DNA of 13,036 bases from a virus (lineage: Duplodnaviria > Heunggongvirae > Uroviricota > Caudoviricetes). The position numbers were made by a program, and so were the translations under genes. The number at the start of each line of letters is the position of its first letter. Position 1 is the first letter of the stretch. The stretch lies in IMG/VR virus record IMGVR_UViG_2724679140_000014; one strand, written 5' to 3'. The notes below the pieces were generated by a model. It saw nothing but the letters and a program-made list of their open reading frames with translations. It had not been told where the DNA came from and did not search any database. Positions 8,770-9,663 of this stretch are shown in pieces.

Positions 8770-9279
8770 ATGGATCGGGAGCTTAAAAACCTGAAACTTA
8801 ATATCAATCAACTAGCAGAACTGGCGGGAGTTTGCCGCCAGACAGTAGCGAAAAGGCTAAAGGACATTCAGCCAGCCGGAGGGCATGAAAAATTAAAGCT
8901 GTACCGACTGACGGATATAATCAGCGCATTCATGAATATACCCGACCCCGCATCACTCGAAGACATGGATCCACAAAGCCGTAAAGCCTGGTACCAGTCT
9001 GAGCGTGAGCGCCTTAAGTTCGAACAGGAAACGGCTGAACTTATCCCCGCCGTGGATGTGCACAGGGAGTTGGTTATTTTTGGGAAAATCTTAAGCGAGG
9101 AACTGGCAAAACTCCCCGACATTCTGGCGCGCGATGCAGGCATCAATCAGAACGCAGTAAACCGCGTCAGGCAGATTATTGATGACCTGTGCAGGCAAAT
9201 TACTACCAGAGTGATACAGGCTAACGACTGGCGCGACAGCACGCCGCAGGTAGTGCAGGAGATTCACAAGGGGGAATAA
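8770..9279 (+). CDS. Nu1-like winged-HTH protein (169 aa): candidate small-terminase-like / packaging-redirection protein
   Basis: Start chosen at the internal ATG with a GGAGG RBS. The N-terminus (LNINQLAELAGVCRQTVAKRLKDIQPAGG..KLKLYRLTDIISAF) follows the lambda Nu1 N-terminal DNA-binding pattern (VNKKQLADIFGASIRTIQNWQEQGMPVLRGGGKG..LYDSAAVIKWY). The gene lies directly upstream of a cos-like region. Confidence 0.5.
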   Translation: MDRELKNLKLNINQLAELAGVCRQTVAKRLKDIQPAGGHEKLKLYRLTDIISAFMNIPDPASLEDMDPQSRKAWYQSERERLKFEQETAELIPAVDVHRELVIFGKILSEELAKLPDILARDAGINQNAVNRVRQIIDDLCRQITTRVIQANDWRDSTPQVVQEIHKGE

Positions 9280-9290
9280 TTCGCGGTACC
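9247..9290 (+). repeat. Direct repeat copy 1 (about 42 bp, overlaps the 3' end of the 8770-9279 gene)
   Basis: CAGGTAGTGCAGGAGATTCACAAGGGGGAATAATTCGCGGTACC recurs with a few mismatches at 9622-9663. Confidence 0.6.
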
Positions 9291-9621
9291 GGAAAACATC
9301 CACCAGCAGGGAACGACAAAAAACAAAAGCGCACCGCTAAGGATGCGCCTTGATTGAGGTTCAATGAGTAAGACATGCACGCACATTGTGGCGCACCTCG
9401 TTCATTCTGGCAATGTATCAGGCTGGTGCGTGCGGTAAGTCTCCAGATTTGCGCAATGGTTCCGCCTGTGATGTTAAGGTTTGTTAAGTTGTTTTGCGCA
9501 GAGATGGACGGAATAAACATCGATGTAAGCCCCGTAATTACTGGCCTTGCCACGTAAAAACCGCGAACAATGATCAGGTTAATCATGCTTAGAAATGCCA
9601 GGGGTATTTGCGCAAAAATGA

Positions 9622-9663
9622 CAGGTAGTGCAGGAGATTCACCAGGTGGAGGATTCGCAACCA
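9622..9663 (+). repeat. Direct repeat copy 2
   Basis: CAGGTAGTGCAGGAGATTCACCAGGTGGAGGATTCGCAACC; the two copies bracket about 330 bp. Confidence 0.6.

Follow-up and report, generated by a model that had tools for sequence, protein, structure and literature searches.

The locus and its repeat pair

The window analyzed here, which is the whole 13,036-nucleotide stretch of IMG/VR virus record IMGVR_UViG_2724679140_000014, is a 12- to 13-kb cos-type phage-inducible chromosomal island (PICI) of Escherichia coli, an element that parasitizes phages. Near its right end lies a direct repeat whose two copies, A (9247-9288, plus strand) and B (9622-9663, plus strand), stand respectively at the 3' end of a terminase-like gene and beside the packaging site, cos. 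The repeat unit is identical to an iteron of lambdoid phages, each copy occurs independently of the other in related islands, and an allele with one copy has arisen from the two-copy form by deletion. We consider it probable that A and B are iteron-derived sequences located where modules meet and that, brought together in one island, they form a direct repeat prone to deletion.

The island is integrated at tRNA-Pro, between yejM and yejO, and its segment from 8700 to 10000 is 100% identical to that of E. coli STEC276; IMG/VR contigs measure 12.3 to 12.7 kb. It has the features expected of cos-type PICIs, namely an integrase, AlpA, a primase with an adjacent iteron-bearing replication origin (ori), cos, a characteristic size, and site-specific integration, and it carries no virion genes. 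Its genes encode the integrase, AlpA, an ash/icd region with isrK and C4 RNAs, DUF4222, a DUF927 primase, SSB, a ProQ/FinO-family protein, and PerC.

The gene at 8770-9279 (plus strand, with an alternative ATG upstream at 8731) encodes a DUF1441-type small-terminase (TerS) homolog, named DUF1441 family protein in RefSeq (Pfam DUF1441, 6.9e-36; PHROG 141 “terminase small subunit,” 8e-55). The original prediction had called this gene Nu1-like, which is true in a distant sense; the Nu1-family gene proper is the small terminase gene, terS, at 9966-10568 on the minus strand (Pfam Phage_Nu1, 9.6e-68, and RefSeq annotation), which is convergent with the cos region designated cos(+). Copy A comprises one iteron unit (core 9253-9267, GTGCAGGAGATTCAC) and a truncated second unit and, as had been proposed, makes up the 3' end of the DUF1441 gene, where it covers the final 10 codons (QVVQEIHKGE) and the stop and reaches a few bases beyond. 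Just downstream of the stop, a terminator scan placed an intrinsic terminator of leftward transcription (9326-9351, minus strand). The 346-bp spacer (9276-9621) follows, and then copy B, again one iteron unit (core 9628-9642) and a truncated second unit. The claim that copy B opens, in the matching frame, an open reading frame (ORF) at 9628-9816 that reaches into the cosQ and cosN elements of cos was also borne out; in some genomes the NCBI annotation pipeline PGAP lists this ORF (9646-9816, plus strand) as a hypothetical protein, and it has no family matches. Its differences between islands are mostly nonsynonymous, it has a premature stop in one relative (L012; related loci are given L numbers here), and it is absent from islands of the L004 type, so that this hydrophobic ORF is probably not a gene.

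A repeat search of the window aligned 9247-9275 with 9622-9650 at 27 of 29 positions, with a spacing of 375 bp. No exact direct repeat in the 13-kb window is longer than the run of 21 identical nt at the repeat start, CAGGTAGTGCAGGAGATTCAC; in 100 shuffles of the window, the longest such repeat measured 13 nt on average and 17 nt at most. The 16-nt core GTGCAGGAGATTCACC has just two sites in the window at three or fewer mismatches, the number expected being 0.08. Past position 29 the similarity requires gaps (GGAATAATTCGC versus GGAGGATTCGC), and the earlier description of a near-exact repeat of about 42 bp was in that respect generous, although the repeat itself is real. In total, the copies match at about 33 to 36 of about 42 columns, which is above the floor of 30 matches that had been set for the alignment. 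Two copies in the same orientation that share so long an identical run are, in themselves, an ordinary recombination substrate.

A phage iteron in solitary units

The repeat unit is identical to the iteron arrayed within O-like (HTH_36/DnaD_N) replication-initiator genes of lambdoid phages. Such arrays are found in 2H10, PhiR55_1, mEp460, cdtI, SfV, Stx2c phages, and about 150 E. coli genomes, and the phage genes that hold them are annotated as replication protein or O-like. Four to eight units occur in each of mEp460, PhiR55_1, cdtI, and two E. coli prophages. The core GTGCAGGAGATTCAC is exact in both A and B, and 21 to 26 nt are identical to units of mEp460, cdtI, and a prophage (L010). Local alignments of A and B with phage O-like genes span 26 to 28 nt and score 38 to 51, against maxima of no more than 29 for shuffled sequences, the maximum set against copy A being 27. 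We rejected the reading of 152 E. coli matches in “HTH domain-containing protein” genes (E of about 0.8) as chance, since these are the phage iteron arrays.

A scan of one genome per species recovered the exact 19-mer core at 14 loci, and the flanks of 11 of these were inspected. In all 11 the core lies within the initiator gene, just after the N-terminal HTH_36/DnaD_N winged helix-turn-helix (wHTH) domain, and in 10 it belongs to tandem arrays of 21- or 24-nt units, the remaining locus (L019) being cut by the locus end. The inspected loci come from Enterobacteriaceae (for example, Enterobacter), Rahnella, Shewanella, Wohlfahrtiimonas, Ignatzschineria, and metagenome-assembled genomes (MAGs) of Clostridia. 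The same scan found arrays in initiator genes but no further solitary sites, and a metagenome scan for the two-unit element specific to the island returned just the two known island types, 57 of its 65 matches being chance. The initiator-gene array always encodes a Gly/Ser/Pro-rich linker and may lie on either coding strand; because of the latter, what is conserved is the DNA and not the peptide. The pairing of the iteron GGTAGTGCAGGAGATTCACYAGG with an HTH_36/DnaD_N initiator is kept from Enterobacteriaceae to the clostridial MAGs (L015 to L027, L009, L010, and L029 to L031), and homologous initiators of other phyla share the iteron.

The replication origin of phage lambda lies within gene O. 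Since the arrays have this same arrangement, they are read as origin iterons, and by analogy with lambda they would be the replication origins of these phages. The island units resemble a variant of the lambda-type in-gene origin, that in the O-like initiators of mEp460, SfV, cdtI, and Stx2c phages, in that 21 to 26 nt, among them the GTG-N9-CAC dyad and the bases at the junction with neighboring units, equal the consensus units GGTAGTGCAGGAGATTCACCAGG. Unlike such an origin, however, the island lacks a tandem array of four to eight units and has two that stand alone at a distance of 375 bp; these lie outside an initiator gene and without an AT-rich unwinding element, and the island possesses a different origin with its own DUF927 primase.

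Copies A and B are not an origin. An array of three or more units with a period of 19 to 24 nt is lacking in the 13 kb, where two sites occur at three or fewer mismatches, and Tandem Repeats Finder identified no array at 9200-9700. Copy A lies in the DUF1441 homolog and copy B is noncoding, so neither occupies an initiator gene; the window encodes no HTH_36/DnaD_N protein and contains no DnaA box. The GC content of 44 to 54% over 9200-9750 leaves no AT-rich unwinding element there. The island's own origin (6589-6870) lies just downstream of the DUF927 primase gene and consists of GGGAC(A/G)AC iterons, of both orientations, that surround an AT-rich stretch; since these units are confined to that region, we rejected the idea that A and B are replication iterons of the island itself. 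The segment 6236-7111, which spans this origin, is swapped between related islands. We likewise discarded the idea that A and B are binding sites of the DUF1441 terminase, since copy B occurs without the gene and mEp460 has the motif in its initiator gene only, not near cos or terS.

Three further observations concern the phages from which such units could come. PhiR55_1, mEp460, and cdtI all carry this iteron type; the closest phage relatives of the island TerS homolog include PhiR55_1 and mEp460 (60 to 65% identity), while that of cdtI is distant (36%); and a metagenome island (L041) has the cosN sequence of mEp460. Together, the TerS relatives, the common iteron type, and this cosN point to mEp460-like phages as partners of the island.

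Copies A and B in related islands

The C terminus of the DUF1441 protein departs from those of its phage homologs, which align to residue 152 or 153 of 169, about 20 codons short of the gene end. Phage DUF1441 terminases finish in acidic or NEVAKQA tails, whereas the tail of the island protein is encoded by copy A. The metagenome island L041, which is 78% identical to the window, has the DUF1441 gene, a copy A with its own stop, and the terminator, in which sequence reading shows a G-C pair in place of the G-U pair of the stem; it lacks the block made up of region R (9449-9621) and copy B. At about 1640-1690, just upstream of its mEp460-type cos, L041 also has five tandem AGCAAACC units.

Copy B, in turn, is the right edge of a conserved noncoding block of about 70 nt (9584-9650) beside cos. 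This block recurs without copy A in at least five other PICI architectures (L004, L005/L037, L006, L007/L033, and L013/L039), some of which encode a RepA helicase or another primase, and one of which is a PICI that encodes capsid proteins. Region R and copy B are present without any DUF1441 gene in L004 to L007, L013, and L037. In the block, the spacing for a sigma-54 promoter is wrong and sequence reading gave no convincing sigma-70 promoter.

These distributions bear on the suggestion that copy B is what is left of a second, decayed DUF1441 gene, produced by tandem duplication. Copy B does repeat the codons at the gene's 3' end and begin an ORF in the matching frame. Yet there is no homology between the copies upstream of the repeat (9209-9246 versus 9584-9621), copy B occurs in islands that have no DUF1441 gene (L004 to L007 and L013), including the capsid-encoding PICI, and the sequence just upstream of copy B matches a different terminase family. 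The idea of a gene remnant is contradicted by these observations, and we give it almost no credence. A and B are not a local duplication; each stands at a module edge, and this lineage happens to carry both.

The terminase match upstream of copy B lies at 9587-9605, where 19 nt are identical to an internal segment of the Terminase_2 terS of Rac-like and P22-like phages (for example, vB_EcoS-606R9). The match reaches 28 of 28 nt in a PICI (L032, 5031-5058), and 4501-4528 of L034 is listed as well. The segment encodes MLRNARVFR in the phage, and in the window it agrees with the iteron unit in strand and frame; it could represent either a relic of a gene or a mimic of a pac site. It lies within region R, which is noncoding and regulatory-looking, with TTTGCGCAA(A) palindromes at 9448, 9493, and 9607 and GTTAAG repeats. 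At positions of L032 (4883-5073) homologous to those of the window's palindromes (9448-9618) there are four to five CGAAAAAGTGTCAA repeats, and both sets may be operators for some regulator. A further stretch, 9519-9547, shares 26 of 29 positions with a P1-like plasmid prophage (L043, 1501-1529), in whose RepFIB-type origin region the match falls between GATC repeats and iterons; the match, partly common to L032 (about 4960-4990), has an E of about 1 and may be chance.

The spacer is present in 17 complete E. coli genomes, each time adjoining the DUF1441 gene. Its GC content is 44 to 52%. No Pfam or PHROG match was obtained for its ORFs of 40 or more amino acids, including one of 147 amino acids on the minus strand that runs from copy B to copy A (9221-9664), and no Rfam family was found in 9200-9965.

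As the original prediction had anticipated, the segment is polymorphic among related islands. In ETEC6335 (L003) and CFIAFB20190172 (L012), window position 9275 is joined to 9622 through a single hybrid copy, and the 346-bp spacer is gone; the hybrid has the A-type flank followed by B-type variants from position 22 onward. The DUF1441 gene of both islands lacks its stop codon, and RefSeq lists it as a pseudogene missing its C terminus. A second deletion, 10045 to 10552, removes most of the Nu1-type terS in these two islands and in L008, L011, L036, and L040, a lineage that has thus lost its own small terminase. All four of the latter terS-deleted islands retain the spacer, and L036 and L040 keep the full arrangement of A, spacer, and B. 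Because the single-copy allele is nested among such islands, it is derived and not ancestral, and the two-copy form is the older of the two. In L041 the gene has a copy A with its own stop and the terminator, which confirms that this arrangement is the older. Each of L003 and L012 has the other as its nearest relative over the left flank, which makes one deletion event the simplest account. A deletion in TUM9812 that ends at 9287 was considered as a further repeat-driven case and rejected, being a GGTA/CCGG microhomology event.

The direction of the change, together with the nature of the spacer, speaks against an insertion scar, which the original prediction had offered as one possibility and in which the repeat would be a target-site duplication or att-like pair left by the arrival of the 346-bp segment. 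Direct repeats do bracket a segment that is missing from some genomes. The spacer, however, has no terminal inverted repeats, transposase, or integrase and occurs beside the DUF1441 gene of this island family only; parts of it are homologous to the matching region of islands without a DUF1441 gene or copy A and of the PICI L032; the apparently empty allele falls within a group of full-length alleles and has lost the stop codon of the gene; and A and B occur independently in other islands. An insertion is contradicted on each of these points and seems to us scarcely tenable.

What did hold from the earlier interpretation is that this is a recombination-prone module junction, as indicated by the indel alleles, by the early end of phage terminase homology in the gene, and by the at least four unrelated sequences with which different islands continue beyond copy B. 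This position is a hot spot for accessory genes. In STEC346 and OkiPb01677 (L007, 5063-9270; L033, 5063-8010), cargo encoding a PAAR protein, a toxin with an S-type pyocin domain, and DUF6392 follows directly after copy B, and A36 and one IMG/VR contig have a different, 1.15-kb insert at window position 9663. In E. coli KC-Dl-1 and one IMG/VR contig (L013/L039), the PICI encodes a major capsid and a head decoration protein and has a near-perfect lambda cos; there the block ending in copy B lies just downstream of the lambda-like cosB, where Nu1 would start.

Generic phage and PICI homology begins in the window at 9761-9763, where the lambda-like cos(+) region (9764-9965, plus strand) starts; sequence reading and an inverted repeat resolve it into a cosQ-like GGGTCCTTCCCGG, cosN, and a cosB with an R2/R1 hairpin (9900-9956). 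The Nu1-type terS is flanked by two inverted lambda-like cos regions (9763-9869 and 10680-10787) that are 74% identical. Relative to the window, the A19 and A36 islands and one IMG/VR contig (L005, L006, and L037) have the entire cos-terS-cos segment in the opposite orientation.

Transcription through this segment is the starting point for an explanation in terms of RNA pairing. A leftward transcript extending from the Nu1-type terS across cos(+) as far as the terminator at 9326-9351 would carry the complement of copy B. Aided by the ProQ/FinO-family protein, it could pair either with a phage initiator mRNA or with the copy A sequence at the 3' end of DUF1441 mRNA. The leftward terminator just beyond the spacer, the island's own ProQ/FinO-family protein, and the complementarity of A and B at 27 of 29 positions in that configuration are all in keeping with it. 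Islands of the A19 type, however, have cos-terS inverted, so that copy B lies in a sense leader and not in an antisense 3' untranslated region, and the cosB hairpin with its T-run (about 9893-9956) would probably stop leftward transcripts first. The predicted minus-strand fold of 9300-9700 is unremarkable, being no better than those of shuffled sequences (z = -0.69), and has no Rfam match. We regard RNA pairing as very improbable.

Elsewhere in the island, 2989-3187 scores 80 bits for isrK and 75 bits for C4 antisense RNA in Rfam, with a c4 a1/b1 target element just under the cutoff; together these elements constitute a P1/P7-type antisense immunity cassette, adjoining the ash/icd genes. Following PerC is a rightward terminator at 8523-8545 (GCCGGAACACTCCGGC, then T7), which the terminator scan did not list, and a promoter-like TTGAAT-18-TACTAT (8646-8675) lies within an inverted repeat (8642-8705). 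From these two features, the DUF1441 gene and the region of R and copy B look like a separate transcription unit.

Origin, possible roles, and significance of the units

The observations support a model in which A and B would be paralogous elements of about 40 nt, each composed of one complete and one truncated iteron unit, that mark the right edges of two modules. The first module would consist of the DUF1441 TerS homolog, with its tail and stop provided by copy A, followed by the leftward terminator; the second would be the conserved noncoding block that ends in copy B beside cos. Each module occurs alone in other islands, and it would be their union here that created a direct repeat with a 375-bp spacing. 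That repeat would then act as a substrate for homologous recombination, with at least one event having removed the 346-bp spacer and one copy and fused the terminase homolog to junk sequence. Recombination with helper-type phages presumably brought the iteron-like units into the island, where they now appear to act mainly as junction and recombination sequences and not as an origin.

Three points weigh against this model. The core of copy B is variable at 1 of 24 columns, while the neighboring part of the block varies at about 9 of 38, and copy A differs at about 4 of 42 nt between lineages that are 78% identical overall. Both copies thus seem to be kept a little more strictly than their flanks, which hints, with small numbers, at selection on the DNA itself, something that would not be expected of pure relics. 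The arrival of an iteron fragment at two module edges lacks a mechanistic explanation, and literature searches yielded no experimental paper on this iteron family, the origin role of the arrays resting on the analogy with lambda. Nor did the searches return anything on this iteron or on DUF1441 in satellites.

The conservation raises the question of whether the units are instead putative binding sites for the initiator of a helper-type phage. Once amplified along with the replicating island, they would interfere by titrating or handcuffing the phage initiator, or they would signal to the island's packaging region that a helper is present. Both cores match the best-consensus iteron perfectly, both copies show a mild excess of conservation, and copy B is kept beside cos across three replication modules (DUF927, RepA helicase, and DNA primase). 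The island has no cognate HTH_36 protein, so that any binder would be phage encoded, and phages with close terminase relatives (PhiR55_1 and mEp460) carry the iteron. There is also a precedent, in that ectopically carried copies of lambda's origin arrest lambda replication through the binding of O alone (PMC4488673). The likeness is that a phage origin's initiator-binding sequence has been copied onto another replicon in the cell; the differences are that the lambda decoy was a full four-iteron origin on a multicopy plasmid, with binding and interference observed in experiments, whereas the island has single units known here from sequence. Initiators normally bind arrays cooperatively, the dyad arms of some copies are altered by substitution (to GTACA in L005 and to GCGCA in L041), the position of copy B relative to cos varies (upstream, downstream, or with 1.15 kb of cargo between), and strains lose one copy by deletion. 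On balance, a role as initiator-binding sites is possible but unlikely.

A wider conjecture, which we hold to be rather improbable, is that the region between the island's regulatory genes and cos is a set of mimics of helper-phage cis sites, made up of putative iteron decoys or sensors (A and B), a 19- to 28-nt copy of an internal terS segment from Rac-like headful phages that could mimic a pac site, and, after these, the cos sites. If it were true, satellites would exploit or sabotage the initiation of helper replication by means of DNA decoys, a mode that has not been described for PICIs.

Compared with known systems, the copies resemble the boundary sequences of mosaic lambdoid phages and satellites in sitting where homology to other elements starts or stops, and they resemble other direct-repeat deletions in having a natural deletion allele with one hybrid copy. 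Unlike arbitrary boundary linkers, the island unit is a recognizable cis-acting unit of a phage origin, and one copy forms the coding 3' end of a terminase homolog. EcCICFT073 is a cos-type E. coli PICI that redirects packaging by means of Rpp (PMC6739421). The island agrees with PICIs of that type in its integrase, AlpA, primase with its own ori, absence of virion genes, length of about 12 to 13 kb, and two cos sites. It differs in that no Rpp-like sequence was detected, the comparison covering one island protein, DUF1441, which in a sequence search had no match at an E of 10 or less among PDB sequences, Rpp included. A Nu1-family terS between inverted cos copies, a DUF1441 terS homolog, and iteron-like units are island features that are not described in PMC6739421.

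What is new is the presence, in a satellite, of solitary phage-origin iterons at module edges, one of which has been recruited as the C terminus of a terminase homolog. Recombination between A and B is one route of island decay and explains the DUF1441 pseudogenes of some genomes. From Enterobacteriaceae to Clostridia, conservation of the iteron itself goes hand in hand with that of its wHTH domain. If the island units are only relics, they are a record of recombination between satellites and mEp460-like origin regions and point to such phages as helpers; if an initiator binds them, they would provide a naturally occurring case of origin-decoy interference or of helper sensing.

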